From Candidatus Pacearchaeota archaeon (GTDB lineage: Archaea > Nanobdellota > Nanobdellia > Pacearchaeales > GW2011-AR1), in NCBI GenBank assembly GCA_018303925.1, contig JAGVXF010000010.1:1-62824 (forward strand): a DNA stretch of 62,824 nt, written 5' to 3'. Below are positions 5,366-60,107 of this stretch, in pieces (the first letter of the stretch is position 1; each line of letters starts with the position of its first letter). Made by a program: the position numbers and the translations under genes. The notes under the pieces are model-generated. The model made no database searches and was not told where the DNA came from. It worked only from the letters and a program-made list of their open reading frames with translations.

Positions 5366-5704
5366 ATGAAGATTAATCCTCTTTTAATGGGATGGTATGA
5401 AATTTTTTCTTTTTTTAAGAAGGGCAAAAAAGATAAACTTTATTGCAATTATCCAGAATGTGGGCAGGAAATTACAACCCCTGAAGTTTTATACAACAAA
5501 ATGAAAGGGGAGATTTATCACAACAATTCTGCCTGTGAAGAGTTTTCTGAAGTAATGAGAGTTTCAAAATCCAAGGGAAAAATAAAAATCGGGGAAAATA
5601 GGGTAGCAGAAATAATCTCACGCGAAGAAGCTCTGAGTCTTTTAAGGAAAGGAAATCTTAAGCAGTCATCAGAACTTGAAAAAAAGGTTGAACAGTTGTT
5701 TTAA
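5366..5704 (+). CDS. Small Cys-motif (zinc-finger-like) protein, paralog of the previous ORF
   Basis: CNYPEC...GEIYHNNSAC; tandem duplicate architecture. Confidence 0.45.
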   Translation: MKINPLLMGWYEIFSFFKKGKKDKLYCNYPECGQEITTPEVLYNKMKGEIYHNNSACEEFSEVMRVSKSKGKIKIGENRVAEIISREEALSLLRKGNLKQSSELEKKVEQLF

Positions 5705-8284: not shown

Positions 8285-9835
8285 TTAAGGATGATAAATT
8301 CTAATTTTTGGGTCTCCAATATAAACTCCTTTCCAATTAATATAATAGCTTCCCATATACATGCTTTCTCCGGCAGTATAGCCTGAAGCATATCTATCTA
8401 TTACTATTTCAGGGTGGCTTATGGAGTTACTACCTGGCTCATGGACATAACCTTTAACGAAAGACATTCCTCCAGTAACCAAATCTGAAACCAAGGACTG
8501 ATCTATGCCTACATCAGGCGAATAGTATGAAGCTACAGGATTAAAAGTTCTGCCCGAGGTTGAAACTGCAGTGTCTCCAATACTTCCGTGATTGAATGTT
8601 AAATTCCATTGAGAACTATTTGCCGTTGGTGCATTAGCATCATTGCTTCCAAAGGAATAGTATCCCATTAAGTTGTTGAGATTTATTTGGAAGGTCGTAG
8701 TATTATCCAATATGGTTGAGAAACCTTTTCCTTTAAGTATGCTATTTGCAAGTTCAAGATGGGCATCAAATGACACATAAAAAGGTGTTGCATTGTTCGA
8801 AATTTGTTTATCAAGAAGGAAATCTCCTTCTGTAGGGTAAAGCGATGATGGACCCATCGCATTGATAACATCTTGGGCAGTATAACCGTCAAGTCTTGCA
8901 ACCATATAAATATCGTAATGGGATTTATTTACAGGTCCCGTTTTTAAATATACGGGATTTGTTCTTCCCCAGAATGAGGAAGCACCGCATCCGCCCCACA
9001 ACTGCCCTTCTATGAAATAACTATATTTTGATAGGATGATTGTTAAAAGCGAGTCGACGGCCTTGCATGCTCCACTGCTATCCATTCTTAAAGGAATTCC
9101 CTTTGTAAGAACAATATAATTTGTTGAATTTGTTAAATTATTTTGTATGAGGTATTTTTCTATGGGCTGTCTTATTGTTGTGTTAAAAACTGTGTAAGAT
9201 ATTTTTTCATCAGTTGTAATTGAAAGGTTTAATTGTGGCATTGGTCCCCGAGTTTTAATGTAATAATTTGAAATTTCTATTGATTCTTGACTATTGAGAT
9301 TCGTGACCAATAGGACATCTGAGTAATTTAATTCTTTAGGTTTTTCCTTAGGTTTTTTTATAAGCGTTATGTTTTTTATTTGATACTCGGAGGAGGGAAT
9401 TGAAGAAGAAATCTCTTTTCCGTTGCTTTCGGTGTAAATGGGGATAATTGAAATTTTTTTTAGCAGATCCACATTTATTTGGTCTCTACTTAAATTCAAG
9501 GTGAATGTTTTTTCTCCAATTTCTGAAAATCCTTCTGGAATTTGGACTCTAATTAATTCGGAATGAAATTCATCTTCAAAAAGAAAATCAATTGAAGTTA
9601 TATTTATGTTTTCTGTTCCCACATTATTTCTTATTTTTATTGAGGCAGAATTTTCTGAAGAATCGACCATTACTGATTTTATAACCAGGTTTACTAAAAA
9701 ATCTTGAGTTGAAATGGAACTTTCGGAATTTTCAAGAAGCGTTTTTATAGGATTCCATAAAACTCCTGCTGCTGTCACGACCAATAAGACTATCACGATA
9801 CTTGAAACCACTGTGGATAAACCTCTCTTTTTCAT
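8285..9835 (-). CDS. Large surface protein with an archaeal class III (type IV pilin-like) signal peptide
   Basis: N-terminus MKKRGLSTVVSSIVIVLLVV matches the prepilin-type KGLS plus hydrophobic helix pattern. The rest has no recognised domain. Confidence 0.6.
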   Translation of the reverse strand: MKKRGLSTVVSSIVIVLLVVTAAGVLWNPIKTLLENSESSISTQDFLVNLVIKSVMVDSSENSASIKIRNNVGTENINITSIDFLFEDEFHSELIRVQIPEGFSEIGEKTFTLNLSRDQINVDLLKKISIIPIYTESNGKEISSSIPSSEYQIKNITLIKKPKEKPKELNYSDVLLVTNLNSQESIEISNYYIKTRGPMPQLNLSITTDEKISYTVFNTTIRQPIEKYLIQNNLTNSTNYIVLTKGIPLRMDSSGACKAVDSLLTIILSKYSYFIEGQLWGGCGASSFWGRTNPVYLKTGPVNKSHYDIYMVARLDGYTAQDVINAMGPSSLYPTEGDFLLDKQISNNATPFYVSFDAHLELANSILKGKGFSTILDNTTTFQINLNNLMGYYSFGSNDANAPTANSSQWNLTFNHGSIGDTAVSTSGRTFNPVASYYSPDVGIDQSLVSDLVTGGMSFVKGYVHEPGSNSISHPEIVIDRYASGYTAGESMYMGSYYINWKGVYIGDPKIRIYHP

Positions 9836-42393: not shown

Positions 42394-44894
42394 TGACGGA
42401 TGAAAATTTAAATAAACCGCTGAAAAAATTAACAAACCTTAATATGAATATTAATCAATTGAAAGTCATTAAGGACAAATACCTTAAAGATTCTCCTACA
42501 GTGGAAGACTGGATAAGAGCAATTTGCCACAGCATTGCACTCTCTGAGATTCTTCATTCTGGAAAAGTAAGCGATGAAGAAATCTTTCGCGGAATTAACC
42601 ATGAAATCATTTCATATGATTCAATGGGAAAAACGGGAAAAATGTATTTACTTCATAAGGGGCTTGAGGATCATAATGAAAGAAAGAAAAATTTTAATAA
42701 ATTCATACAAAACCTGGAAGGAATAAATAAAAAATATCCCGAACTAATAAAAGAAACAGAAGAGAAATTTTACAATCTTTTATCAAGTTTTAATTTTTTG
42801 CCGAATTCCCCCACCTTAATGAATGCGGGAAGGGAACTTCAGCAGTTGTCGGCATGCTTTGTTTTACCTGTGGGTGATTCAATTGAAGAAATTTATGAAT
42901 CTTTGAAAAATATGGCTTTAGTTCACAAGAGCGGAGGAGGAACCGGGTTCTCATTTTCAAATTTGAGGCCCGCAAAAGATGTTGTGATTTCAACAAAAGG
43001 AATTTCTTCAGGCCCTCTTTCATTCATGCAGATTTTTGATAAGTCTACGGAAGTTGTCAAGCAGGGAGGTACAAGAAGAGGAGCAAATATGGGTATTCTT
43101 CATTACACGCATCCCGATATACTCAAGTTTATTGACATGAAAAAAACGCCGGGGGTTATGGAGAATTTTAATGTTTCTGTTACAATAGATGAAAGGTTCA
43201 TGAATGCAGTTAAAAATAACAAGGAATATGAATTAATTAATCCAAGAAGCCATGAGATTGCTGGAAAAATTAATGCAAAAGATGTCTGGGATAAACTCGT
43301 CAGAGGAGCCTGGGAGACAGGAGACCCCGGGATAATAATTATTGACAGAATAAACAATACAGGAAGTAATGCGACACCTCACCTTGGGCAAATTGAATCA
43401 ACGAATCCATGCGGTGAACAGCCTCTTTTGCCGTATGAGCCCTGTAATCTTGGCTCAATAAATCTTTCAAATTTTGTTGATGAGAACAAAAAAAATTTTG
43501 ACTATGAAAAACTAATTGAGACTGTAAAACTTTCGACAAGATTTCTTGATGATGTTATAGATGTAAATTGCTATCCTATCCCGAAAATTGAAGAAATCGC
43601 AAAAAAAACAAGAAGAATTGGTCTTGGGGTTATGGGATGGGCGGAAGCACTTGTTAAATTGAAAATTCCATACAATTCTCCTGAAGCCCTTCTTAAAGCT
43701 GAAGAATTAATGAAAGTGATAAATGAAACGTGCCTTGAGTATTCAAACGAGCTTGCAAAAACCCGGGGAGTTTTTCCTGCTTTTAAAGGAAGTGTTTATG
43801 ACAAAGAAGGTCCTTACTTTAGGAATTACGAAACTTATCCCAGACATTCAGCAAGAACAACAATTGCACCAACGGGGACAATTGCAATTACTGCGGGTCT
43901 GCAAGGGTCGGGAATTGAGCCGTTTTTTGCAGTTGCTTATGTGAGATATAATGCTGCCGGAATCGACGCTTTAAAAAAAGGAGAAACTCCTTCTGGGAAA
44001 GATACCTTTTTTGAAGTAAATCCACTTTTTGAAAAAATCGCCAGAGAAAACAATTATTTTGGTCTTAAAAAAGAAGACCTTTATATAAAAGTTAATGACA
44101 ATCACAAATCCTTATTGGGAATAAAAGAAATTCCTGAAAAAATTCAAAAATTGTTTTTAACTTCACACGATCTAAACCCAAGGGAGCACGTTTTGATGCA
44201 GTGCTCCTTTCAAAAATATACAGACAATGCAGTATCAAAGACTGTCAATTTAAGAAATGAAGCAACTGTTGAAGATGTTGACGAAGTTTACAGGCTTGCT
44301 TACGAAAACGGCGCGAAAGGTGTTACGATCTACAGGGATGGGAGTAAGCAATTTCAGATTCTAAACATTAATGAAAAGGGTAAAAAAGAAGTAAAAAAAG
44401 ATTTGCCCGAGTTTGCTGACTATTACCCGCTCGAAACAGGCCAGGGTCCGATTCATATACATATAAATTACAATGAAGAAAGAATTTCAAAGATTTTTGC
44501 AAATTTGTCCCCTATCGGAACTGAAATTTCAGGAATGGCAACGTCCCTCGCAATTGTTCTTTCAAAATATTTTGAGCTTGGCGGAGACCCTGTGAGAATT
44601 TTAAAGCATCTTAATTCTATAAAGTCAGAAAAGCCTTACGGCTTTGGAAAAAACAGAGTTGATTCAGTTCCACATGCTTTTTCAATAGCAATAAGAAATC
44701 ACCTGATAAAAACAGGAAAATTAAAATCCATAGACAATGGAAATGGTTTTTTATATGCCAACGGAGAAGTTGCAGAAATTGATAAAAATGTGAAGACTCT
44801 TTATTGCTCTAAATGTTTTAGCTCCAACGTCGGAATGATTTCAGGATGCACAGAGCCAACATGCTTTGACTGCGGGTATAGTAAATGCAGTTGA
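42393..44894 (+). CDS. nrdJ: Class II (adenosylcobalamin-dependent) ribonucleotide reductase
   Basis: NPCGEQPLLPYEPCNLGSINL active-site region, 833 aa, C-terminal Cys-rich tail CSKC...CTEPTCFDCGYSKC. Confidence 0.95.
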   Translation: MTDENLNKPLKKLTNLNMNINQLKVIKDKYLKDSPTVEDWIRAICHSIALSEILHSGKVSDEEIFRGINHEIISYDSMGKTGKMYLLHKGLEDHNERKKNFNKFIQNLEGINKKYPELIKETEEKFYNLLSSFNFLPNSPTLMNAGRELQQLSACFVLPVGDSIEEIYESLKNMALVHKSGGGTGFSFSNLRPAKDVVISTKGISSGPLSFMQIFDKSTEVVKQGGTRRGANMGILHYTHPDILKFIDMKKTPGVMENFNVSVTIDERFMNAVKNNKEYELINPRSHEIAGKINAKDVWDKLVRGAWETGDPGIIIIDRINNTGSNATPHLGQIESTNPCGEQPLLPYEPCNLGSINLSNFVDENKKNFDYEKLIETVKLSTRFLDDVIDVNCYPIPKIEEIAKKTRRIGLGVMGWAEALVKLKIPYNSPEALLKAEELMKVINETCLEYSNELAKTRGVFPAFKGSVYDKEGPYFRNYETYPRHSARTTIAPTGTIAITAGLQGSGIEPFFAVAYVRYNAAGIDALKKGETPSGKDTFFEVNPLFEKIARENNYFGLKKEDLYIKVNDNHKSLLGIKEIPEKIQKLFLTSHDLNPREHVLMQCSFQKYTDNAVSKTVNLRNEATVEDVDEVYRLAYENGAKGVTIYRDGSKQFQILNINEKGKKEVKKDLPEFADYYPLETGQGPIHIHINYNEERISKIFANLSPIGTEISGMATSLAIVLSKYFELGGDPVRILKHLNSIKSEKPYGFGKNRVDSVPHAFSIAIRNHLIKTGKLKSIDNGNGFLYANGEVAEIDKNVKTLYCSKCFSSNVGMISGCTEPTCFDCGYSKCS

Positions 44895-45008
44895 ACATCG
44901 CAATTAAGAGACCTGAAAGGCACAAGGCGAAGCACTCGTGAGTTTTTTCTGCAAGAAAAAATACTGAAGCGAAGCGTAGGTATAGTATGACGCAGGAATT
45001 TGTTTAGG
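44890..45008 (+). repeat. Degenerate attC-like site A (good left arm, poor right arm)
   Basis: GTTGAAC-ATCGCAATTAAGAG overlaps the nrdJ TGA and matches the left arms of sites D and F. The only candidate right end is GGAATTT-GTTTAGG. The interior holds two GCGAAGC motifs and a TTTTTTCT-GCA-AGAAAAAA hairpin. Confidence 0.35.
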
Positions 45009-46156: not shown

Positions 46157-46246
46157 ATTTAACATCAGGATTATGAGAAGTTCGCCGTAGGCGAATTTAG
46201 GTGTAGCGAGGTGCAACCGAGCGAAACCGTTAAATCGCTGTTAGTT
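46157..46246 (+). repeat. attC-like site C
   Basis: ATTTAAC-ATCAGGATTATGAG...CCGTTAAATCGCT-GTTAGTT. The arms pair over about 10 bp with bulges on the left arm. Central TTCGCC-GTA-GGCGAA hairpin. Confidence 0.6.
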
Positions 46247-46428: not shown

Positions 46429-46474
46429 AATTTTTGAGGGGGTTTCGGTCGTCACTATATAATGGGCCAAAAGA

Positions 46475-46526: not shown

Positions 46527-46667
46527 ATGGTTCAAAAAAATGTGACTCTAAGTCTTGATGAAGACACTTACGAAAAATATAGAGAATTTTGTAAGAAAAA
46601 TGCTGTTGCCTTATCAAGAAGTATAGAAGTATTCATGGAAGAAAAAACAAAAAGGGGGGAAAAATGA
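46527..46667 (+). CDS. Ribbon-helix-helix (CopG/controller-like) protein
   Basis: MVQKNVTLSLDEDTYEKYREFCKKNAVALSRSIEVFMEE fits a beta-strand plus two-helix RHH pattern. It overlaps the methyltransferase start. The upstream part of track ORF 46278-46667 is repeat DNA. Confidence 0.55.
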   Translation: MVQKNVTLSLDEDTYEKYREFCKKNAVALSRSIEVFMEEKTKRGEK

Positions 46668-48265
46668 GCCAAGAACTTTTATCAGTAGGTCAGGCATCTC
46701 AATGGGCGAGTGATTATTTAGACAGACCCGTGACTACTTCCAATATTAGTTATTTAATCCAGTACGCAAAAATTAAGAAATATCTTGATGAAGAAAAGAA
46801 AATAAAAGTCAATCTAAATGAATTAAAAGAATATTATGATGAAAATTTAGTAAAAAAACAAGAGTCATGGAAAAGCCAATTAGGGAAAGATTTAAACTGG
46901 GCATTATCTTTCTCGCATTTAAGAGAATCTGATACGACAAAACACGTTCATAGACTACACCCCTATAAAGGAAAGTTTATACCTCAACTTGTAGAATATT
47001 TCTTGGATTCTCATCTAAACACTTTTAAGAAAAAGGTCTTTTTTAAAGAAGGTAATATAATTCTTGACCCATTTATGGGAAGCGGAACAACGCTCGTTCA
47101 ATCATCCGAGATAGGTTTACATTCCATTGGGATAGATGTTTCTGATTTTAATTGTTTAATTTCCAAAGTTAAAATTGAAAAATATGATTTAGTTAGATTG
47201 GATAGAAAAGCAAGAGACATTTGTTTTAAAACAAGAGAATTTAGCCAAAAAGTATTTGATGATTCATTTGATGAACAATTAAAAGAAAAATTAAACGAAT
47301 TTAATAAAAAATATTTTCCTAATCCTGAGTTTAAGAGTAATGTTTGGAAAGGTATAATTAGAAACGAAGAACAATATGGGGAAGAAAAGTTAAAGCAGTT
47401 TCTAAAGGAAAATGAAGAATTTTTTAAAAAGAATGGAACAAAAGACAAATCTAACTTATTAAGTGAAAAAGAGATGAATAATTTTCTCAATAAGTGGTTT
47501 TCAAGAAGAGTAAGACAAGAATTATTTTATTATATAAAACTTTTAAGGGAAATTGGGGATGAAGACTTAAAAAATGTTCTAAGAATTATTTTAAGTAGAA
47601 CTGCTCGTTCGTGTAGGGCTACAACCCACTCGGATTTAGCGACATTAACAGAACCTCAAAATGGACCATATTATTGTAGAAAACACAAGAAATTATGCAC
47701 CCCGATAAACTCTATTGTTAAACACTTAATAAGATACACTTATGACACAATAAACAGATTAAATGAGTTTTCTAAATTAAAAAAAAGTGTATTTAGTAAT
47801 GTTATTCATGGAGATTCAAGAGAAGTAGATATTTTTGGAGAAATCAAAACGCAAAATCCTGAATTTTACAAGTTTTTAGTAAATAAAAAAATAGATGGAG
47901 TTTTTACTTCTCCGCCTTATGTTGGTCAAATAGATTACCATGAACAACACGCTTATGCTTATGAGCTTTTTGATATTGCAAGAAAAGATGATAAAGAAAT
48001 AGGCCCTTTATTCAACGGACAAGGACAGAAAGCAAGGGAGGAATATGTTAAAGGGATAAGCAAAGTTTTCATAAATATAAGTAAATTTGTAAAAGATGAT
48101 GGAGACTTTTTTGTTGTTGCAAATGATAAATATAATCTTTATCCTATAATTGCTGAAAAAAGCGGATTAAAAATAGTAGAACAATTTAAAAGACCTGTTC
48201 TAAACCGAACAGAGCGAGATAGACAACCTTATGCAGAGATTATATTTCATATGAGAAAAAAGTAA
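46664..48265 (+). CDS. Type II DNA methyltransferase (N4-C or N6-A, SPPY type; motif I precedes motif IV)
   Basis: HRLHPYKGKFIPQL and LDPFMGSGTT (motif I) lie near aa 95-155. VFTSPPYVGQIDY (motif IV) lies near aa 415. Confidence 0.85.
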   Translation: MSQELLSVGQASQWASDYLDRPVTTSNISYLIQYAKIKKYLDEEKKIKVNLNELKEYYDENLVKKQESWKSQLGKDLNWALSFSHLRESDTTKHVHRLHPYKGKFIPQLVEYFLDSHLNTFKKKVFFKEGNIILDPFMGSGTTLVQSSEIGLHSIGIDVSDFNCLISKVKIEKYDLVRLDRKARDICFKTREFSQKVFDDSFDEQLKEKLNEFNKKYFPNPEFKSNVWKGIIRNEEQYGEEKLKQFLKENEEFFKKNGTKDKSNLLSEKEMNNFLNKWFSRRVRQELFYYIKLLREIGDEDLKNVLRIILSRTARSCRATTHSDLATLTEPQNGPYYCRKHKKLCTPINSIVKHLIRYTYDTINRLNEFSKLKKSVFSNVIHGDSREVDIFGEIKTQNPEFYKFLVNKKIDGVFTSPPYVGQIDYHEQHAYAYELFDIARKDDKEIGPLFNGQGQKAREEYVKGISKVFINISKFVKDDGDFFVVANDKYNLYPIIAEKSGLKIVEQFKRPVLNRTERDRQPYAEIIFHMRKK

Positions 48266-48266
48266 T

Positions 48267-48980
48267 TTATTTTTCCATCCTTTCTAGTGTTATTTCTGGG
48301 AGTCCAAATTTATCAGCTAATAAAATATAAAATCCTTCTGTTAAAACATTTAATTCATTTATTTCCATCATGAATTTGACTAAGGGCATCTCTCTAGGGT
48401 TTGTATCGAATATATCGGAACACAACTTTAACTTTCCACCTTGACCATGTTCCCAAAAGAAAGTATAATGTGTAAGGGAATTCCTTGTTCCAGAATCAAA
48501 ATAATTTAGATATTTGTTTGTAGAATATTTTTGTTTTAGGAAATTGATAGCGTTTCCAATACCATGGATTTCTTTATGATTCTTCCCAAATTTTTTCCAA
48601 TCAATAAAGAATAAAAAATAAATTTTTAATCTCTCTAAAAAAGTAACATATGTGTTTACCAAGATAGAATGATAATGTTCTCCCAATCTAAAAGTGTCTC
48701 CAATATTAAATGCTTTTTTTAAGCATTCTAATTTTTCTTCAGTTTCTTTTTTATTGCTTGAATTAAATACTGAACCAAAATCTTTAGATAATTTTAAAGC
48801 CATATTACAACTTTTTGTAATATTCTGTAATCTTGTTACCTGTTCTTCTGAGAAATTTCTTAACAAAAGTCCATCTGAATCAAGATTATTAATTAGTTCC
48901 TTAATTGAGATTTCATAATCTTCAAAAAATTTTCTTAATCCGCTTCCCATCCCAGATTTAAAATTTTCGATGCTTGTCAT
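48267..48980 (-). CDS. Hypothetical helical protein in the R-M module with an Rx4H motif (possible HEPN-like)
   Basis: GTRNSLTHYTFFW contains R-x4-H. It is co-oriented and contiguous with the putative endonuclease gene. Confidence 0.35.
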   Translation of the reverse strand: MTSIENFKSGMGSGLRKFFEDYEISIKELINNLDSDGLLLRNFSEEQVTRLQNITKSCNMALKLSKDFGSVFNSSNKKETEEKLECLKKAFNIGDTFRLGEHYHSILVNTYVTFLERLKIYFLFFIDWKKFGKNHKEIHGIGNAINFLKQKYSTNKYLNYFDSGTRNSLTHYTFFWEHGQGGKLKLCSDIFDTNPREMPLVKFMMEINELNVLTEGFYILLADKFGLPEITLERMEK

Positions 48981-49754
48981 TTAAACATCCATTTTCTTTT
49001 CAGCAACTTCTTTTATCTTATTCTGTATTTTTTCCTTAAACTCTTTACCAACTTCATCAAAGATTTCTAAAACTTCTTCATAAGTTCCTTTTCCACCAAG
49101 AAGTTCCCAGAATTTTTCAGCAACATAAAGCTCTTTTTCTTCATCCAAAAATCCTTGCATTGTAAATCTGTTATATGGTTCTGGATGATAAGGATTATAA
49201 GGAATAGCCAAAATTGTATTTACTTTCTTTTTTCTGAGTGCAACCCATTCCAATAACTTCTGCTTTGATTTAACAAAAACATCTATATTGGGTTTTGCTG
49301 TTTTTATCTCAATATAATATTCATCATTGCCTTTCTTTAAGAATAAATCGGCTCTGACTTTTATTTTTCTTCCACCATTTTTGTTACATTGCAAAATATC
49401 TTTTATTTCTTTTTCTTTATTTGCAGTTCTTGTTCCATTCTTTATTTCTTGAAGAATCTGGGAAATTACAGAGTTCTCTTCATTTGTAATTTCTCCCTCA
49501 ACATCATAACCAGTTTTTACTTCATCGTAATGAGCTAATGCGACAATTTCAGAAATTTTCTCATAAACTGACATTCCCAATGTTGTAGCTAATGAATGTA
49601 TGAAAGAATAAGAAGCTACTTTTTCGGAATCTTGCATAAGTTTAACCAAAAAAGGCATAGAGGTTGTTTCTCTTACATATTTGGACAACTTGTCATTTAG
49701 TTTTGACCTTAGCAAATTCTTGATTTCGTTAATTTGATTTTCATTGAGTGTCAT
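48981..49754 (-). CDS. Putative type II restriction endonuclease (PD-(D/E)XK; possibly TdeIII-like)
   Basis: VRADLFLKKGNDEYYIEIKTAKPN gives a D...E-x-K catalytic pattern. It is convergent with the methyltransferase. Confidence 0.5.
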   Translation of the reverse strand: MTLNENQINEIKNLLRSKLNDKLSKYVRETTSMPFLVKLMQDSEKVASYSFIHSLATTLGMSVYEKISEIVALAHYDEVKTGYDVEGEITNEENSVISQILQEIKNGTRTANKEKEIKDILQCNKNGGRKIKVRADLFLKKGNDEYYIEIKTAKPNIDVFVKSKQKLLEWVALRKKKVNTILAIPYNPYHPEPYNRFTMQGFLDEEKELYVAEKFWELLGGKGTYEEVLEIFDEVGKEFKEKIQNKIKEVAEKKMDV

Positions 49755-49865
49755 CTTAATAAGAAAGATTGCCTTTTATTTATAAATGCTATTATTTACG
49801 TAACCGAAACCCCCTCTTTCTTTAATAAAAAACAAGAAAAATATTTGGGTGCAACGAAGTGAAAC

Positions 49866-49926
49866 CTCTTATCGTTTGTTAGGCGAAATTTTAATTTCGT
49901 GAGTTCTCTCGTTGGTTCGATAAGAG
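49866..49926 (+). repeat. Family-2 hairpin, copy a (GTTAGGC in the loop)
   Basis: CTCTTATCG-ttt-GTTAGGC...(33 nt)...CGATAAGAG with a perfect 9-bp stem and an inner GAAAT/ATTTC hairpin. Confidence 0.6.
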
Positions 49927-50065
49927 AAGTATTTTTCTGTTTTTACAATCGAGCAAACCACAGTTTGCGAGACTATCTGTCGCGTGAGCGACTTCGAGCC
50001 GATCCCCTAATTTTTCTGAAAGAAAAATATTCGTAATCGTTTTCGAGCCCACCGAGTAATATGTC

Positions 50066-50193
50066 GCCTAACATCGCGATTAAGCGACCCGTAGGGCTCG
50101 GGCGGAGTGAAACGACCCCGAGTGTTTTTGCGAAGCAAAAATATGGGTGGAAAAACCTGCAAGGTTTTGGAACCGCTTAATCTGCTGTTAGTT
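50066..50193 (+). repeat. attC-like site D
   Basis: GCCTAAC-ATCGCG-ATTAAGCG...CGCTTAAT-CTGCT-GTTAGTT. The centre holds four small hairpins, including TTTTTGCGAAGCAAAAA and AAAACC-TGCA-AGGTTTT. Confidence 0.7.
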
Positions 50194-50198
50194 TCTCC

Positions 50199-50247
50199 CG
50201 AATACTTGGAGGGATTGATTTTTAGTGCAACGATGCCGAAGGCAAAA
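50199..50247 (+). repeat. 49-nt conserved block, copy 2
   Basis: CGAATACTTGGAGGGATTGATTTTTAGTGCAACGATGCCGAAGGCAAAA. Confidence 0.9.
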
Positions 50248-50302
50248 AATCAAAGTCGTCGTGTCTATTGTTTTTTATGGGGGTTTACGCCGCCGTTTTT
50301 TG

Positions 50303-50323
50303 CTTCTTTTTTTAAAAAAGAAG
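50303..50323. repeat. T/A palindrome CTTCTTTTTT-T-AAAAAAGAAG plus G-run (block 2, copy 2)
   Basis: Perfect 10-bp arms, followed by GTGGGG. Confidence 0.85.
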
Positions 50324-50355
50324 AGTGGGGATTTCCGTTTAATGACCAAAAGATA

Positions 50356-50363
50356 TTTAAATA
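50356..50363 (+). promoter_or_regulatory. TATA box for the ArsR operon
   Basis: TTTAAATA lies 24 nt upstream of the ATG at 50387. Confidence 0.5.
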
Positions 50364-50386
50364 TTAGCTTATTCTAATACAAGAAT

Positions 50387-50701
50387 ATGAAAGAACTATA
50401 TGAAATTCATGCTGAAATGTGCAAAGTATTTTCAAATTCAACAAGGTTGGAAATATTGAATTTATTGAGAGATAAAGAATTATCAGTAACAGAATTGATA
50501 AAAAAGACAAGATTAAGTCAAGCCAATATCTCCCAGCATTTGTCAATTATGAAATCCAAAGGAATTGTTGTCTCAAATAGAAAGGGCAAGAATATCTATT
50601 ACAGACTCACAAATCCAAAAATAATCAAAGCATTTGATATAATAAGAGATGTTTTGGCTGAAAAATTAAAGAAAAATGGGAAATATGTTAAAAACTTATG
50701 A
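50387..50701 (+). CDS. ArsR/SmtB-family HTH regulator
   Basis: FSNSTRLEILNLL...ELSVTELIKKTRLSQANISQHLSIMKSKGIV winged-HTH pattern. Confidence 0.85.
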   Translation: MKELYEIHAEMCKVFSNSTRLEILNLLRDKELSVTELIKKTRLSQANISQHLSIMKSKGIVVSNRKGKNIYYRLTNPKIIKAFDIIRDVLAEKLKKNGKYVKNL

Positions 50702-50710
50702 GGTGCTAGA

Positions 50711-51274
50711 ATGAAAAAGATATTTACAATCTTGATTTTCGGTATGTTGTTATTAAGTGTAAGTTTAGTTTTTGCTCACGAACATGATTTTAATGAAACA
50801 AAACAAATTATAAATTCTGGAATTAGTTGCGATAAACTCACAGATGAACAGCTTGAATCCATTGGTGATTATTATATGGAGCAAATGCACCCTGGCGAAG
50901 CCCATAAGATGATGGATCAAATGATGGGTGGAGAAGGTTCTGAAAGTTTAAGACAAGTACAGATTAACATGGCAAAACGGCTTTATTGTAATGAAGATAT
51001 CGGAGGAATGATGGGTGGTGGCATGATGAATATGATGATGGGAAATAATATGATGGGAAACTATCCAGCATATTATGGTTATAATAATTTTTGGAATGTA
51101 CTTTGGATGGTTTTTTTAATAGGAGCAATTGCGCTGATAGTTTGGCTGATTTATAAATTTACAAAAAAAGGGAAAGAATCTGAAACTCCAATTAATATTT
51201 TACAGAAAAGATATGCTAAAGGAGAAATAAACAAAAAACAATTTGAGGAAATGAAAAAGGGGTTAAGGAAGTGA
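50711..51274 (+). CDS. Secreted Met/Gly-rich protein with a TM anchor and a C-terminal SHOCT domain
   Basis: Signal-like N-terminus, MMGGGMMNMMMGNNMMG tract, one TM segment, then ILQKRYAKGEINKKQFEEMKKGL (SHOCT-like). Confidence 0.6.
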   Translation: MKKIFTILIFGMLLLSVSLVFAHEHDFNETKQIINSGISCDKLTDEQLESIGDYYMEQMHPGEAHKMMDQMMGGEGSESLRQVQINMAKRLYCNEDIGGMMGGGMMNMMMGNNMMGNYPAYYGYNNFWNVLWMVFLIGAIALIVWLIYKFTKKGKESETPINILQKRYAKGEINKKQFEEMKKGLRK

Positions 51275-51582
51275 GGCTCATGGAAAAAGATAAAAGCACA
51301 TTGGTATGGATTTTCATTGCTGTAATTGTTGTTCTTTTTTTCATAGGAAGTTTTGGAATGGGCAGTTATGGTATGATAGGTTTCGGAATGGGATTTGGAT
51401 TTATTTTCATGTTGCTTTTCTGGGGTCTTATTATATGGCTTATAGTCACTTTAATCAATACGAGCCAATCCAATAAAAGTGAGCCAGATTCATTAACAAT
51501 CCTAAAAAGAAGATATGCTTCTGGAGAAATCACAAAGAGGCAATATGAAGAAATGAGGAAGGAATTAAACATCGGAATTTAA
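51271..51582 (+). CDS. Small membrane protein with a C-terminal SHOCT domain
   Basis: Two TM segments and ILKRRYASGEITKRQYEEMRKEL. The last codons lie inside attC-like site E. Confidence 0.6.
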   Translation: MRLMEKDKSTLVWIFIAVIVVLFFIGSFGMGSYGMIGFGMGFGFIFMLLFWGLIIWLIVTLINTSQSNKSEPDSLTILKRRYASGEITKRQYEEMRKELNIGI

Positions 51583-51652
51583 CGAAGTCGCCAAAGGCGA
51601 TTTGGGTGGAGAAGCCTGCAAGGTTTCGGAACCGTTAAATTTCCTGTTAGTT
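51564..51652 (+). repeat. attC-like site E
   Basis: ATTAAAC-ATCGG-AATTTAACG...CGTTAAATT-TCCT-GTTAGTT with a 9-bp perfect inner stem. The centre has TCGCC-AAA-GGCGA and the CCTGCAAGG hairpin shared with site D. Confidence 0.7.
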
Positions 51653-51719
51653 GCGTCTTTTCGTAGAAAAGACCTAGGGATAGTGCAACGATTTTTGCGA
51701 AGCAAAAAATCCCGAAGAG

Positions 51720-51734
51720 TTTAGAATTACCACA
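51720..51734. repeat. Left copy of a 15-bp perfect inverted repeat bracketing ORF 51735-52010
   Basis: TTTAGAATTACCACA. The reverse complement lies at 52046-52060. Confidence 0.9.
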
Positions 51735-52010
51735 CTATCGTTTTTTATATTTCAATTTTAATGCTAAAATTAGAATTATTGCACAAGATACAAAATTTAA
51801 TCCTGTAACAATTTCCAACAATAAATCAGAGATTACTAAAAGTGCATAAAGAAAAGTAATAAGACTACAAAAAGTCCAAATGATGTAAGAATTGATATTT
51901 GCACTTGCTATTTTTTTCATTAAATCTCTTATTGTTGGAAAGTATCCTATCGTTGCAATAATTCCTGTACTCGCATAAAGAAAGGCAATAATTGTTAATA
52001 TGAATTCCAT
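51735..52010 (-). CDS. SemiSWEET/PQ-loop-like 3-TM protein
   Basis: 91 aa with three hydrophobic helices. GYFPTIRDLMKK sits at the position of the PQ motif. Resembles the 20013-20369 product in layout. Confidence 0.5.
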   Translation of the reverse strand: MEFILTIIAFLYASTGIIATIGYFPTIRDLMKKIASANINSYIIWTFCSLITFLYALLVISDLLLEIVTGLNFVSCAIILILALKLKYKKR

Positions 52011-52045
52011 AATACATTTATTAAAATTGAAATGAATATAAAGTT

Positions 52046-52060
52046 TGTGGTAATTCTAAA
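52046..52060. repeat. Right copy of the 15-bp perfect inverted repeat
   Basis: TGTGGTAATTCTAAA is the reverse complement of 51720-51734. Confidence 0.9.
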
Positions 52061-52064
52061 TTGC

Positions 52065-52201
52065 AACTAACATCGCGATTAAGAGAAGTTGTTTGCAGTA
52101 ACTTTAATCTATAAATAGGCAAACAATTTGGGCTAATTTCTGGTTTTCACTAAGAAAATTTGCGAAGCAAAAAGAAATTACCTCTTAATCTGCTGTTGCT
52201 T
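52065..52201 (+). repeat. attC-like site F
   Basis: AACTAAC-ATCGCG-ATTAAGAG...CTCTTAAT-CTGCT-GTTGCTT. The arms are as in site D, with a compensatory C:G to A:T change. The centre differs (TTGTTTGC/GCAAACAA hairpin and TTTGCGAAGCAAA). Confidence 0.7.
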
Positions 52202-52288
52202 GACCGAACGAAGTGAGGCACGAGTGGAGCAAGAAGCGACCTCGTGAGTTTTAATTTTTCTTTCAGGGTGGGGCCCGCCCGCTTTTTG

Positions 52289-52310
52289 TTTCTTTTTTTC
52301 TAAAAAGAAA
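52289..52310. repeat. T/A palindrome TTTCTTTTT-TTCT-AAAAAGAAA plus G-run (block 2, copy 3)
   Basis: Perfect 9-bp arms, followed by ATGGGGGAG. Confidence 0.8.
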
Positions 52311-52323
52311 ATGGGGGAGTTTT

Positions 52324-53007
52324 TTATCTTCCAATTTTTTGTAAAAATTCTTCTCTTGTAATTTCTTTAAGAGTCTTCAAATCAAGATAATAATTCTTTG
52401 GTTCAACTTCAACTTGCATTGACAAAGAATTTATTTTACCGCAATCACATTCTATAACATAAAAATTAGGTGTGTCAGAAGTGTAGCTCATTAAGTTACC
52501 CCCACATTTAAGAGAACATATTTCGTTTGATTCTGAATTAGTAAGAACACTTGTCTTAGGATAACCTTTTTGATTAGCCAATTCTATAAATGAATTTTCT
52601 GCCTTAATGGTTTGAGAATTTTCAACAATACCATTAATCTTATTTGAAATTGAGGGATAGAATTGTAAGGATAGAACGATAATAATTAATAATACTATGA
52701 AAGATAACCAAAAGAATCCTTTTCTATTCTGTATTTTATATTTGTTTTTATGATAATCATCTTGAGATAAGGATTTAATTGACCAATAAATTTTCTTTCC
52801 ATTAAACATACAGATTAGCAAAATAAGAGGAATTGATATCATCAAAGCAGTAGCAGAATTATGATTAAATCCCAATGTCCTAATGTAATTATATGATAAA
52901 TATAATAAAAAGATTAAAAATCCAACAACGAAAAGATAAACAATCATCTTGTATTTTTCTTCTTGTTCTTCCCTTGTAATAAGTCTAACTTTAATAGGTT
53001 CTGCCAT
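52324..53007 (-). CDS. Hypothetical multi-TM protein with a Cys-containing extracytoplasmic C-terminal domain
   Basis: Four hydrophobic segments, then a soluble domain with CSLKCGG...CDCG. Confidence 0.5.
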   Translation of the reverse strand: MAEPIKVRLITREEQEEKYKMIVYLFVVGFLIFLLYLSYNYIRTLGFNHNSATALMISIPLILLICMFNGKKIYWSIKSLSQDDYHKNKYKIQNRKGFFWLSFIVLLIIIVLSLQFYPSISNKINGIVENSQTIKAENSFIELANQKGYPKTSVLTNSESNEICSLKCGGNLMSYTSDTPNFYVIECDCGKINSLSMQVEVEPKNYYLDLKTLKEITREEFLQKIGR

Positions 53008-53059
53008 AAAATAAATAGAAAAGCCAAACTTAATAAATATATGCTTCTAATTTGATTTT

Positions 53060-53269
53060 ATGGAACTAAAAAAACAAAAAGAAATTAGACAACACAAAGC
53101 AAATTTAGGCATAGGTGTTGCTGGAGGATTTGTCGCTGGTGGGAGTTTGCTTGCTTATCAAATATTAATACCATATGGTTTGGGTTATGCTCTTCTGGGA
53201 GCGGTTTTTGTTGCTTTAGTTATCTATAAAATGTCAGTTAAGATGATAGAGAAAAATGTTAATCGCTAA
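53060..53269 (+). CDS. Small 2-TM membrane protein
   Basis: 69 codons, Gly/Ala-rich helices. Confidence 0.4.
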   Translation: MELKKQKEIRQHKANLGIGVAGGFVAGGSLLAYQILIPYGLGYALLGAVFVALVIYKMSVKMIEKNVNR

Positions 53270-53315
53270 AACTCCCCCTAAATAAATAGAAAAATTTGGG
53301 AGAGCGACAGCGAAC

Positions 53316-53379
53316 CTTTTATCCATTGTTATGCAAAGTGCAAAGCATTTTGTTGTTTTTCTCGTCGGTCGGATAAAAG
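53316..53379 (+). repeat. Family-2 hairpin, copy b (GTTATGC in the loop)
   Basis: CTTTTATCC-att-GTTATGC...GGATAAAAG with a 9-bp stem. Two positions differ from copy a and both are compensated. Confidence 0.6.
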
Positions 53380-53496
53380 AAGTTTTTCTCTGAAACGAAG
53401 TTTCAGCTATCTGTCCGAAGGACTGCGGGCAATCTCTCACTATCTTTGGGCGGGAAAGAAAGAAAAATTAAAATTTGGGCGAAGCCAAGCAACATA

Positions 53497-53526
53497 AGAT
53501 TATCAATAGTTTATTATTGATAATCT
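53497..53526. other. Perfect 12-6-12 palindrome; candidate recombinase core site (dif/attI-like) or operator
   Basis: AGATTATCAATA-GTTTAT-TATTGATAATCT. It ends 25 nt upstream of the recombinase TATA box. Confidence 0.55.
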
Positions 53527-53581: not shown

Positions 53582-54397
53582 ATGAATGGACTGAGATTAA
53601 AATTAAAAAGAGAACTTGAAATAAGAAATTTTTCTAATCAGACTGTTAAAGCGTATCTTTATTCGGTTGATAAATTTGTGGAATTTTCTAAAGGAAAAGG
53701 ACTAAATGAAGATTCAATTAAAGACTATATTCAAAAAGGTCTTGAAAACAAAAATCCAACGAGTGTTAGAAGGGATTTATTTGCAATTAAATTTTTCTTT
53801 GAAAAGGTATTAAAGCAAAAGGTAAACATCCCAAACCCAAAGAAAAATAAGACTCTCCCGGAGATTCTCACAATTGAAGAAATAAAAAAATTAATCGAAT
53901 CTGCAAATAATATCAAACACCGATTAATAATCAAACTTCTTTATGGATGCGGATTAAGAGTTTCTGAGATTGTAAACCTTAAAGTAAATGATTTGAACTT
54001 TGTTGAAGAATTAATTAAAATAAATCTTGCAAAAGGAAAAAAAGACAGATTTGTTAAGATACCTTCATCAATAAAAGATGAACTTGAAAGTTATTTAAAA
54101 TTAAATAAGCATAATACTTTATTTCCTTCAAATAGAGGTGGAAAATTAACAAAAGATACTATTCAAAAAATTGTTCAAAACTCTGCTAAAAGAGCAGGAA
54201 TTAAAAAAAGAGTTTATCCACATTTATTGAGGCATAGTTTTGCAACGCATCTTCTTGAACAGGGGACGGATTTAAGAATGATTCAAAAATTGCTTGGTCA
54301 TTCTGATATAAAAACCACTCAAATTTATACTCAAATTTCCCAAGCTTCAATAAAAAATATAAAAAGTCCGCTTGATAATTTACAATATGGCAAGTAA
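53582..54397 (+). CDS. xerA: Xer-type tyrosine recombinase (XerA/XerC/XerD-like; no IntI-specific insertion)
   Basis: N-terminal SAM-like core-binding domain, GLRVSEI (box I Arg), KGKKDR, HLLRHSFATHLL and LLGHSDIKTTQIYTQ (His and Tyr). Only about 40 aa lie between KGKKDR and HLLRH. Confidence 0.9.
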   Translation: MNGLRLKLKRELEIRNFSNQTVKAYLYSVDKFVEFSKGKGLNEDSIKDYIQKGLENKNPTSVRRDLFAIKFFFEKVLKQKVNIPNPKKNKTLPEILTIEEIKKLIESANNIKHRLIIKLLYGCGLRVSEIVNLKVNDLNFVEELIKINLAKGKKDRFVKIPSSIKDELESYLKLNKHNTLFPSNRGGKLTKDTIQKIVQNSAKRAGIKKRVYPHLLRHSFATHLLEQGTDLRMIQKLLGHSDIKTTQIYTQISQASIKNIKSPLDNLQYGK

Positions 54398-54722
54398 AAA
54401 CAAATTATTGTGGGAGATTCTGATCCCAAAGTTTTCAAATGATGGAAAAGAATTTGAAATCGAATTTCACAAAAAATGGGACAAAAAAATCGGGAAAATT
54501 TCGGGGGGGCTGACTATCCTTAGGACTGCAAAAGGGCACTGGATAAATCCTGATAAAAAACTTTTTTCCGAAGAAATGATTCCTGTCAGAATATACTGTT
54601 CTGAAAAGGAAATTGGAAAGATTATGAAATTCACACTTGAACATTATACTCAGGATGCAGTATTTTGCTATCTGGTGAGTAATAAAATTAAAATACTAAA
54701 TAAAAACAAGAATTTGACTTAA
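54387..54722 (+). CDS. Hypothetical protein overlapping the recombinase stop (operon partner)
   Basis: Start set at MASKNK; 112 codons. Confidence 0.4.
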   Translation: MASKNKLLWEILIPKFSNDGKEFEIEFHKKWDKKIGKISGGLTILRTAKGHWINPDKKLFSEEMIPVRIYCSEKEIGKIMKFTLEHYTQDAVFCYLVSNKIKILNKNKNLT

Positions 54723-54781: not shown

Positions 54782-54846
54782 GGTATTGCCTTAAGTCTTC
54801 GGACATACCGCAAGCGTGTTCCCGGTTATTACTTCGGTAATACCGG
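54782..54846 (+). ncRNA. Candidate small structured RNA or leader: two UUCG-tetraloop hairpins
   Basis: GGTAT...GTC-TTCG-GAC-ATACC (54782-54809) and CCGGT(T)ATTAC-TTCG-GTAATACCGG (54822-54846). TATA-like TTAAATA lies at 54745-54751 and a T-rich tract ATTTTATT follows. Confidence 0.35.
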
Positions 54847-54857
54847 ATTTTATTAAA

Positions 54858-55421
54858 ATGGTAAAAAGAGTTTCTATTTATATTGATGGTGTGAATTTTG
54901 TTTATGGTTTGAAATCTTTAAACCCAAAATATTCAGATTATCATTTTGACTTTGAAAATTTTATTAAAAAGATTGTTGGAGAAAATGATTTAATTAATAT
55001 TTTCTACTATAATGCTTCCTTGAAACAATCAGTTAATCCGAGAAGATTTAAGGAACAGCAAAAACTTCTCGCAAGACTAAAGAAGATAACAAAATGTAAA
55101 GTCATTTTATGTAAAAGACAAAAGAGATTTAACAAAGATGACGAAGAATATTATACAATTAAAGGTGATGACATTAATTTAGCTTTAGATGTGTTAAATG
55201 ATGCGTGGGAAAATAAATATGATAAAGCAGTTCTATTTTCAGGAGATAGAGATTTTGCTCCCTTGTTGAAATATGTTAAGAATAAAAATAAGAAGGTGGA
55301 GGTTCTTTCTTTTGATGAATTATCTTCAAGAAATTTGCTTAACGAAGCCGACAAATTCACATTCATTGATAAGAAAACAGTTAATAAGTTCTTTTGGAGA
55401 GGAATTGTAGATAAAAAATAA
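54858..55421 (+). CDS. NYN-domain (LabA/DUF88-like) putative RNase
   Basis: VSIYIDGVNFVYGL at the N-terminus and SGDRDFAPLL. Start moved to the ATG at 54858. Confidence 0.7.
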   Translation: MVKRVSIYIDGVNFVYGLKSLNPKYSDYHFDFENFIKKIVGENDLINIFYYNASLKQSVNPRRFKEQQKLLARLKKITKCKVILCKRQKRFNKDDEEYYTIKGDDINLALDVLNDAWENKYDKAVLFSGDRDFAPLLKYVKNKNKKVEVLSFDELSSRNLLNEADKFTFIDKKTVNKFFWRGIVDKK

Positions 55422-59990: not shown

Positions 59991-60107
59991 GGCTCCGTAG
60001 CTCAGCCTGGTTAGAGCACCGGACTTTTAAGCGAAACAAGTTTTGCATACTTCGCAAAAATTCGCAAAGAGATCCGGGTGTCGAGGGTTCAAATCCCTTC
60101 GGGGCCA
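59991..60107 (+). tRNA. tRNA-Lys (TTT) with a 42-nt intron in the anticodon loop
   Basis: Acceptor GGCTCCG/CGGGGCC, D arm GCTC-AGCCTGGTT-AGAGC, anticodon stem CCGGA/TCCGG with loop CTTTTAA. The intron spans about 60031-60072. T arm GAGGG-TTCAAAT-CCCTT. Confidence 0.85.

Follow-up and report, generated by a model that had tools for sequence, protein, structure and literature searches.

In this work, we focus on a cassette array, and on the folded DNA elements that it carries, in contig JAGVXF010000010.1 of a Candidatus Pacearchaeota archaeon (GenBank assembly GCA_018303925.1). The whole stretch analysed, 62,824 nucleotides (nt) long, is called here the window. The array occupies 8.6 kb from a ribonucleotide reductase gene, the stop codon of which lies at 44892-44894, to a recombinase gene of the XerA type, and it is made of five modules that are separated by sites of the attC type, termed family-1 (F1) sites. 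Its payload genes encode a TdeIII-type restriction enzyme and a methylase, an ArsR-type regulator and SHOCT-domain proteins. Two of the five modules also carry a block that is built around a second element, termed F2, which is a large, structure-conserved family of DNA hairpins found in integron-like cassette arrays of DPANN archaea. The loci closest to the window come from metagenome-assembled genomes of Woesearchaeota, Pacearchaeota and Nanoarchaeota, all DPANN; labels such as L022, L213 or L226 designate the other loci and contigs that were compared with it.

The window holds two F2 copies, in which we distinguish an outer helix (P0), a stem (P1) and an inner hairpin (hp3):

49829-49944, + strand: F2 copy a, whole fold, recognised as inverted repeat I12, by DNA folding and by a covariance model (96 bits).
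53288-53390, + strand: F2 copy b, recognised by the covariance model (101.8 bits), the centroid fold showing P0, P1 and hp3.

An earlier reading of the window, made from the sequence only, had placed these hairpins at 49866-49926 and 53316-53379, and both are present there as described, flanking motifs included. The two copies are homologous, as had been proposed, with 75% identity; being too short and too diverged, the pair stays below the reporting level of a BLAST of the window against itself (E<1e-3). The hairpin is bigger than first described, since an outer helix joins the A-rich stretch before ATTTGGG to the T-run after the 3' arm. In copy a, this helix pairs AAAACAAGAAAAATATTT (49829-49846) with AAGTATTTTTCTGTTTTT (49927-49944). 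The U box ATTTGGGTG (49843-49851), an ACGAAGT mini-hairpin and an AAC (49863-49865) lead to the 9-bp stem P1, formed by CTCTTATCG (49866-49874) and CGATAAGAG (49918-49926). Its loop contains an unpaired core, TTT-GTTAGGC (49875-49884, with GTTAGGC at 49878-49884), the inner hairpin hp3 (CGAAAT/ATTTCG, 49884-49899) and a conserved TTCTCTCGTTGGT (49905-49917), and TCTCTCGTTGGTT stands directly before the 3' arm. Copy a folds well as single-stranded DNA (z between -3.1 and -3.5), with P0, P1 and hp3 all recovered. Copy b is built in the same order: P0 (AGAAAAA, 53288-53294, with TTTTTCT, 53384-53390), U box ATTTGGGAG (53294-53302), AAC (53313-53315), 9-bp P1 (CTTTTATCC, 53316-53324, with GGATAAAAG, 53371-53379), core ATT-GTTATGC (53325-53334, with GTTATGC at 53328-53334) and hp3 (CAAAGTGC/GCATTTTG, 53334-53352), with TTCTCGTCGGTC directly before the 3' arm. 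In both, the small hairpin is followed by a T-rich stretch that ends in T(T/C)GGT, the 3' arm is followed by AAGT(A)TTTTTC(T), and CTATCTGTC occurs at 49973-49981 and 53407-53415. The U box is also found inside F1 sites (ATTTGGGTG at 51600, ATATGGGTG at 50141).

The structure is best seen in the way the family varies. A crude search for the stem gave eight further F2 copies in DPANN genome loci, and the array of L022 has four copies that are 2.1-2.6 kb apart. With a pattern that fixed the flanks and the loop only, leaving all nine stem positions free, at least 120 stretches were matched in metagenome contigs from many environments. A perfect 9-bp stem is found in 113 of the 131 matches listed, in at least eight variants such as CTTTTACCC/GGGTAAAAG, CTCTTAACC/GGTTAAGAG and CGCTTATCG/CGATAAGCG. 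In an alignment of 123 distinct copies, 97.9% of the outer-stem cells are paired, and both partners have changed together (double, compensatory changes) at 6 of the 9 pairs. For the inner hairpin, pairing amounts to 97% and double changes occur at 3 of the 6 pairs; the compensatory changes that had been noticed between the two copies of the window are thereby confirmed at the level of the family. None of 500 shuffles matched the observed pairing, and sliding the partner by 1-3 columns left 43-52% paired. Moreover, normalised mutual information links the type of the 5' arm more closely to that of the 3' arm (0.80), despite a distance of 50 nt, than to the adjoining loop (0.41-0.50).

A covariance model of the family, the search that had been suggested from the two copies, recovers only these two in the window, the next best score being 17.8 bits, and gives 12 matches in 80 genome loci (1.15 Mb), all of them in DPANN and all on the strand of the recombinase. 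It has zero matches in bacterial integron loci with an integron integrase (IntI), and a looser pattern run on viral contigs (IMG/VR) gave 28 matches, every one of them stem-less, so that no F2 was found there with that pattern. The comparison with L213 bears on what is conserved: the last gene and the recombinase-proximal hairpin (T, described below) are the same as in the window and the flanks are nearly identical, while the F2 stem, hp3 and the two spacer hairpins hp4 and hp5 differ in sequence and each still pairs. This reflects either the replacement of a segment or fast compensatory change, pairing being kept in both cases. F2 variants without the ATTTGGG box were also seen (L007, 618-683; L013, 6497-6564; L226, about 8308-8380), with other stems (CGTTAAAGC/GCTTTAACG, CGTTAAAAT/ATTTTAACG), which means that the family is wider than the search pattern.

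The architecture of F2 can be understood by comparison with the F1 sites, the general form of which is nnTAAC-AT-arm ... ATTTGGGNG ... AAC-arm'-N4-GTTAGnn. Those of the window are the following:

46157-46246, + strand: F1-A, a hybrid site, its two L arms being mismatched.
50066-50193, + strand: F1-B, recognised by sequence, GCCTAAC-AT-CGCGATTAAGCG ... ATATGGGTG ... AAC-CGCTTAATC-TGCT-GTTAGTT.
51564-51652, + strand: F1-C, its 5' half overlapping the end of the open reading frame (ORF) 51271-51582.
52063-52201, + strand: F1-D, recognised by sequence.

A hybrid attC-like site with mismatched L arms is likewise present in L140. As a simple F1 finder hits both strands of such near-palindromic sites and so returns false positives, only the sites oriented by their U box were used. 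By sequence homology, F2 is a circularly permuted copy of the F1 attC-like site. Its 5' part (ATTTGGGNG - mini-hairpin - AAC - arm - N3-4 - GTTAnnn) is homologous to the 3' half of F1, and its 3' arm with the following AAGT is homologous to the 5' half, where, in most F1 sites, nnTAAC-AT precedes the arm and AAGT. In this arrangement the L boxes of F2 pair, the R'' box stays single-stranded in the loop, and the position of the R' box (nnTAAC) is taken by T(T/C)GGT instead of TAAC. The sequence-only reading had compared the 5' stem and GTTAGGC to an L-R arm of F1, with its partner downstream rather than upstream and the core therefore inside out; both the homology and the inside-out arrangement stand, as does its suggestion that F2 is a distinct class of site.

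The orientation of F2 is constant with respect to the recombination functions. Among the 26 contigs that have a homologue of the recombinase (40-80% identity to that of the window), 25 have it downstream of F2 and on the same strand, and in 18 copies, out of about 74 with enough flank, F2 lies 170-340 nt before the recombinase start. U-box-oriented F1 sites are co-oriented with F2 in 93 cases and not in 21, the latter including false calls, and in no case does F2 stand inverted to F1, T or the recombinase. As for the gene that lies upstream, it has the direction of F2 in 48 cases and diverges from it in 53, and copy a lies upstream of the divergent restriction-enzyme gene. A terminator or a 3' untranslated element of the upstream gene, considered as a candidate, is rejected on the basis of these gene orientations. 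The strand itself is marked by mini-hairpins: C-GNA-G triloops are classic stable DNA mini-hairpins, as in d(GCGAAGC), and those with a GNA triloop outnumber their TNC counterparts by 21 to 2 in the intergenic DNA of the array and by 433 to 25 around F2 (L109-L228), compared with 65 and 53 elsewhere in the window. This bias points to the recombinase-sense strand as the strand that is selected to fold. G-runs such as GGGGCGGGTGGTCGGGGG are seen on the same strand in related spacers.

F2 is followed by a spacer and preceded by a C-rich box, which in the window are as follows:

49927-50072, + strand: alpha spacer after copy a, with several small hairpins, ending in GTCGCCTAAC; crossover AA|C at 50070-50072.
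53380-53493, + strand: beta spacer after copy b, ending in AAGCAAC; crossover AA|C at 53491-53493.
49803-49816, + strand: C box ACCGAAACCCCCTC upstream of copy a; inverted partner, G box GAGGGGGTTTCGGT, at 46437-46450.
53268-53278, + strand: C box AAAACTCCCCC upstream of copy b; inverted partner, G box GGGGGAGTTTT, at 52313-52323.

The spacers that come after the 3' arm belong to a few discrete types, with two or three more small hairpins and a CTATCTGTCC-GAAGGAC-like motif, and all end in AAC. What follows this AAC differs: it can be an F1 site, T and then the recombinase gene, a short site of R'-N6-R'' form, or DNA that is unrelated. Near-identical alpha spacers occur in L016, L022, L110, L114, L143, L216, L225 and L226 with different partners after the AAC, and the spacer of copy a, next to F1-B in the window, has a nearly identical counterpart next to T in L016 and L225. 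The beta spacer, which contains the hairpin TGAAAC-GAA-GTTTCA, CTATCTGTC, GTCC-GAA-GGAC and a second U box (AATTTGGGCGAAGCC), is joined to differing T hairpins or F1 sites in L007, L022, L130, L140 and L141, and likewise in L193, L213, L215, L222 and L228. The same left flank being followed by different partners after the AAC, AA|C is the crossover point, as in integrons. The window and L226 also agree over F1-B, from its left flank through its body, up to its right-hand GTT box, where they part ways.

An all-against-all comparison places F2 within this recombining landscape. The right ends of blocks of at least 90% identity cluster where the spacers end, at +95, +115-120 and +140 nt from the 3' arm, and the left ends cluster about 40 nt before the 5' arm, just past the C-rich box; block ends do not pile up at the F2 stem or core, and form a minor peak in the loop. 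The conserved unit is thus an A-rich stretch, the U box, F2 and the spacer, lying between the C box of the payload and the crossover, with F2 about 95-145 nt 5' of AA|C. For copy a, the C box and the G box form a 14-nt inverted match over 3.3 kb that brackets the restriction-modification genes, and an inverted match of at least 10 nt was found for the C box of 61 of 110 F2 copies, versus 31 of 110 for a control region, several types of box being recurrent. Genes inside the payloads bounded by these cassette-specific 10-15-nt inverted repeats lie about equally often in either orientation, and the repeats might serve the inversion of the payload or close the non-coding region in the circular form.

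Some relations between F2 and its surroundings were looked for as well. The copy a core TGTTAGGCGA (49877-49886) is complementary over 10 of 10 positions to TCGCCTAACA (50064-50073), forming repeat I13, and we considered that the F2 core and the R' box at the spacer end could rebuild a complete attC as a general rule; this was rejected, for it applies to alpha spacers only and not to beta, gamma or delta. In the window, the F2 stem showed no relation to L boxes, be it those of the F1 in its own cassette or those of the adjoining F1 or T. We also observed 'core-only' sites in L144, L223, L198, L207, L220 and L125, where the spacer end ...TAA is followed by about 6 nt and GTTAnnn (for example CCTAA-GCCCTG-TTAGG); their shape is that of a classical double-stranded recombinase core without the L hairpin.

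The proximal and distal ends of the array are marked by three features:

53494-53526, + strand: T site, AT followed by AGATTATCAAT (53497-53507) and ATTGATAATCT (53516-53526), recognised by its shared architecture.
53582-54397, + strand: XerA-type tyrosine recombinase gene, 271 aa (NF040815 recomb_XerA_Arch, 249.7 bits for a cutoff of 220).
44890-44911, + strand: distal array end, half-site GTTGAAC-ATCGCAATTAAGAGA, overlapping the stop codon of the ribonucleotide reductase gene.

The best solved relatives of the recombinase are the archaeal XerA structures 4a8e and 5hxy, and the IntI model TIGR02249 gives two partial matches, below its cutoff. When aligned with the IntIs of Aliivibrio, Photobacterium and Cellvibrio, the protein keeps the catalytic residues and lacks both IntI-specific insertions. 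Being associated with a recombinase of the XerA type without the IntI-specific domain, the array is not a classical integron, and IntegronFinder-style criteria would score such XerA-linked arrays as integrase-less. The architecture of T, that is nnnAAC-AT and an inverted repeat of 11-16 bp with a spacer of 5-8 nt, is found before the recombinase gene in about 20 relatives, and its arms vary in sequence between genomes (L002-L025) and always pair. In shape, T is a dif- or loxP-like core, the cassette junction lying just outside it, at AAC|AT. Copy b does adjoin the recombinase, as had been noted. However, the proposal that F2 is an attI-like class of site does not hold: there can be several F2 per array (4 in L022), about a quarter of them recombinase-proximal, whereas T has the constant position, and it is the T hairpin that fills the attI-like, recombinase-proximal role.

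Some observations concern the recombinase end of these loci. In L206, which has an F2 at 5581-5679, a T-like hairpin stands directly before a homologue of the NYN-domain gene (54816-55421 in the window) with no recombinase in between, and the homology to the window picks up again at about 54778 (AACAGGTATTGCC...); the recombinase gene and ORF 54372-54722 may together be a unit that can be inserted or deleted. The related contigs L001, L002, L005, L009-L011 and L020 stop within about 100-200 nt upstream of the recombinase gene, a pattern that would fit assemblies interrupted by the repeats of the spacer and of F2.

What could be the role of F2 in such a system? Our preferred reading, to which we give a probability of roughly 0.4 and which is tentative, is that F2 would be an accessory hairpin on which the recombinase docks without cleaving it, within a composite, single-stranded recombination region. 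F2 would fold once the recombinase-sense (+) strand is single-stranded, into an L-box duplex closed by a loop that holds the unpaired GTTA(G/T)nn core and the small covarying hairpin, with the non-cleavable T(T/C)GGT at the position of the R' box. This L-box-like duplex would dock a monomer of the XerA-type recombinase, F2 itself staying uncut, and the docked monomer would help to assemble or to direct recombination at the neighbouring AA|C, where the block adjoins F1 or T. In a circular cassette, the order of the region would be C box, F2, spacer, AAC, F1, leader and G box. The family itself, its fold, strand preference, position and orientation, and the point of crossover are established by the comparisons; that the recombinase binds F2 without cleaving it, and that DNA rather than RNA is the acting molecule, is what we infer. 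This reading agrees with where F2 lies (95-145 nt from the crossover), with its orientation, its L-box-like duplex and its preference for one strand, and also with the scarcity of block ends there and with a cleavable AAC having been lost from R'.

Several points weigh against this reading. The docking role is proposed by analogy, with the direct repeats of attI and with the accessory DNA of cer and psi. F2 is absent from 3 of the 5 cassettes of the window and from about two-thirds of the junctions in the genome loci that were selected by their recombinase, so it is not required for recombination. The U-box types are shuffled relative to the stem types and a few copies among the 131 matches listed have mismatched arms, so that some exchange does take place at or within F2. 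The unpaired GTTA core lacks a consistent complementary partner, the matching GCCTAAC ending alpha-type spacers only. The A/T-rich stem of copy b is thermodynamically marginal (z of about 0, no better than shuffles) and is not used in the minimum-energy fold of its 273-nt context, so that the case for the structure rests on covariation and not on folding energy. An RNA would also be compatible with the conserved G.T wobble of hp3 and with the A/T-rich box that precedes the GGG by about 25 nt. Finally, F1 sites have junctions at both of their ends.

Other explanations have to be considered. As the main rival, F2 could be a recombination site in its own right, a folded 'AAC + hairpin' with the topology of T that heads a gene-less mobile cassette; the AA|C that precedes the 5' arm and the one that closes the spacer would be the two ends of this cassette, and cutting would take place at the former AAC or, within the core of F2, at G|TT. 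On its left, F2 is indeed flanked by a module (A-rich - ATTTGGGNG - mini-hairpin - AAC) of the kind that ends beta and delta spacers, where it is a proven left flank of crossovers, the U-box types combine freely with stem types that are themselves tightly linked to the following spacer, and the left breakpoint between the window and L213 falls between the U box and the 5' arm. In addition, the match of the copy a core with its spacer end is the classical signature of the two ends of a cassette, and Vibrio superintegrons offer examples of cassettes without genes (bioRxiv 10.1101/2023.11.21.568050). However, block ends do not accumulate at the AAC before the 5' arm and do so weakly in the loop, the left boundary being instead the C box some 40 nt upstream; the complementarity of core and spacer end is limited to alpha-type modules; and the arms are matched in 113 of the 131 matches listed, a state that frequent crossover at the core would destroy. 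We hold a site of this kind to be rather unlikely. It is less probable still that F2 acts as an RNA, either as a small non-coding RNA or as a processing or termination element of transcription in the recombinase sense. Such a function would accommodate the strand-specific structure, the G.U-compatible wobble of hp3 that is kept in 67 of 123 copies, and the combination of the A/T-rich box (TAAATAAATAG and the like, before the U-box GGG) with the T5 run after the 3' arm, which would suit an archaeal promoter and terminator. It is nonetheless at odds with the orientation of F2, which follows the recombinase and the crossover sites and not the neighbouring gene, with the U boxes of F1 sites, which have no promoter-like box before them, with the C-GNA-G triloops, which are a hallmark of DNA mini-hairpins, and with the homology of the F2 parts to the halves of a DNA recombination site; the curated models of Rfam 15 gave no match over F2, either at the gathering score or at E<=1.

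Could F2 simply be a scar? A functionless remnant of a tandem attC-like junction, where a 3' half meets the next 5' half, or a hybrid left by inversion, would account for its permuted composition of two F1 halves; hybrid F1 sites with mismatched arms do exist (F1-A and that of L140), and F2 is dispensable at most junctions. The sequence-only reading had likewise thought of hybrids left by inversion, but an inversion between two F1 sites gives head-to-head junctions of R or L boxes and not the L''-R''-loop-L' order, and F2 is never found inverted with respect to F1, T or the recombinase. Furthermore, the loop and the flank are conserved over more than 120 distinct copies from many environments, the stem has double compensatory changes at 6 of 9 pairs and hp3 has them too, and four hairpins have changed in the syntenic pair formed with L213 and all still pair. 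This speaks for one lineage under selection for pairing rather than for repeated scars, and makes a scar quite improbable. As for the resemblance of copies a and b being due to chance or to a local segmental duplication, only two copies, 75% identical, are present in the window; the deflationary outcome that had been envisaged at the start, a simple duplication of about 150 bp without further copies, is refuted by the more than 120 distinct copies found elsewhere, and the nearest relatives of copies a and b sit in other genomes (copies 1 and 3 of L022), which leaves this explanation a practically negligible chance.

Around these elements, the genes of the locus call for some remarks. The ribonucleotide reductase at the distal junction (GTTGAAC, 44890-44896) is of the B12-dependent type, and contig L121 has a homologue of it and an F2. 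The restriction-modification payload (46664-49754), an N6/N4 methylase and a TdeIII-type endonuclease, recurs in the metagenome contig L226 (1437-7144) with 92-95% nucleotide identity; the two genes are separated by an ORF of 237 aa in the window and by 3.3 kb in L226, where the upstream side differs too. The SHOCT-domain membrane protein genes (50711-51274 and 51271-51582) are adjacent paralogues (repeat D13), and the stop codon of the second falls inside the 5' half of F1-C. Outside the array, a tRNA-Lys with anticodon TTT (59991-60107) is interrupted just past the anticodon loop by about 46 nt, as is typical of an archaeal tRNA intron; it was found by Rfam and was not called by ARAGORN.

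How does F2 compare with the known recombination sites? With the attC sites of integrons, in particular the long and homogeneous chromosomal ones such as the Vibrio cholerae repeats (VCRs), it shares R-type (GTTRRRY) and L-type boxes, a structure that is more conserved than the sequence, strand specificity, and a system in which the crossover lies at an AA|C / G|TT triplet. The L'/L'' boxes pair in F2 as they do in attC. However, attC has complementary outer boxes (RYYYAAC/GTTRRRY), whereas F2 has GTTA(G/T)nn in the loop, 3 nt inside the 5' arm, and no complementary RYYYAAC was found within the element. Moreover, the crossover that delimits cassettes takes place in attC itself, at G|TT of R', whereas the blocks that carry F2 end at the spacer AAC and at the C box, and attC is recombined by an IntI with the IntI-specific domain, which the neighbouring recombinase lacks. 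With regard to attI, F2 would resemble the accessory direct repeats (DR1/DR2 of attI1), as an extra, non-cleaved, GTTA-bearing binding element near the crossover, but it is on the cassette side of that crossover, is a hairpin and not a direct repeat, and is present in many copies per array; attI is a single site that adjoins the integrase gene, and F2 reaches 4 copies in one array.

The other comparison is with the Xer systems. The Xer sites cer and psi, with their accessory sequences, combine, as here, a Xer-type enzyme with about 100-300 nt that are conserved on one side of the core, the attP(+) of the CTX phage is a precedent for a Xer recombinase that uses a folded single strand, and the pdif modules of Acinetobacter plasmids are gene modules bounded by Xer-type sites, as are those described here. 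These known cases are bacterial, with XerC/D, dif-like 11-6-11 cores and double-stranded accessory DNA bound by proteins, whereas the present system is archaeal and of the XerA type, with attC-like hairpins and a multi-hairpin flank. F2 does not have the shape of a Xer/dif core, which consists of two arms of about 11 bp that are 6-8 bp apart, as its arms are of 9 bp and are 43-52 nt apart; T has this shape, with 11-bp arms and an 8-nt spacer, the cassette junction lying outside it at AAC|AT. Arrays of attC have been reported in genomes of Nanoarchaeota (DPANN), mostly without detectable IntI (Ghaly et al. 2022, PMC9668308), and the F1 sites are probably attC sites of the kind reported there. 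The IntIs of that study possess the IntI-specific domain and its attC and attI sites are canonical; an XerA-type recombinase beside the arrays, the T hairpin and F2 are not described in it. As to the gene-less cassettes of Vibrionaceae superintegrons (bioRxiv 10.1101/2023.11.21.568050), they are, like the F2 block, non-coding units that travel in arrays, but they end in a normal attC, whereas the F2 block has a permuted hairpin and is bounded by the C-rich box and AA|C. Our literature searches brought up neither F2 nor T, nor any XerA-type recombinase beside attC-like arrays.

The biology of integrons rests on one clade of enzymes, IntI, and on two types of sites, attI and attC. Here, archaea with genomes among the smallest known in their domain have a Xer-type enzyme next to attC-like arrays, together with a third type of site that is kept by compensatory evolution in more than 100 environmental copies. 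As an accessory docking hairpin, F2 would be the first element of this kind to lie on the cassette side of an integron-like crossover; as a recombination site, it would show that the attC fold also works when permuted. The covariance model and the position of the crossover provide a handle to find such arrays, to re-examine the 'integrase-less' archaeal attC clusters, and to test how XerA-type enzymes treat folded single strands. The surrounding system is a more far-reaching lead than F2 alone. We see an even chance that DPANN archaea of the Woese-, Pace- and Nanoarchaeota type possess an integron-like capture platform that works with an XerA-type recombinase devoid of the IntI domain and with three classes of folded single-strand sites, T, F1 and F2, and, as part of the same joint estimate, that its recombination regions are several hundred nt long, rich in GNA triloops and closed by the G-box/C-box repeats. 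If true, this would explain why the attC clusters of archaea apparently lack an integrase, and it would mean that structure-specific recombination of single strands arose, or persists, outside the IntI clade.

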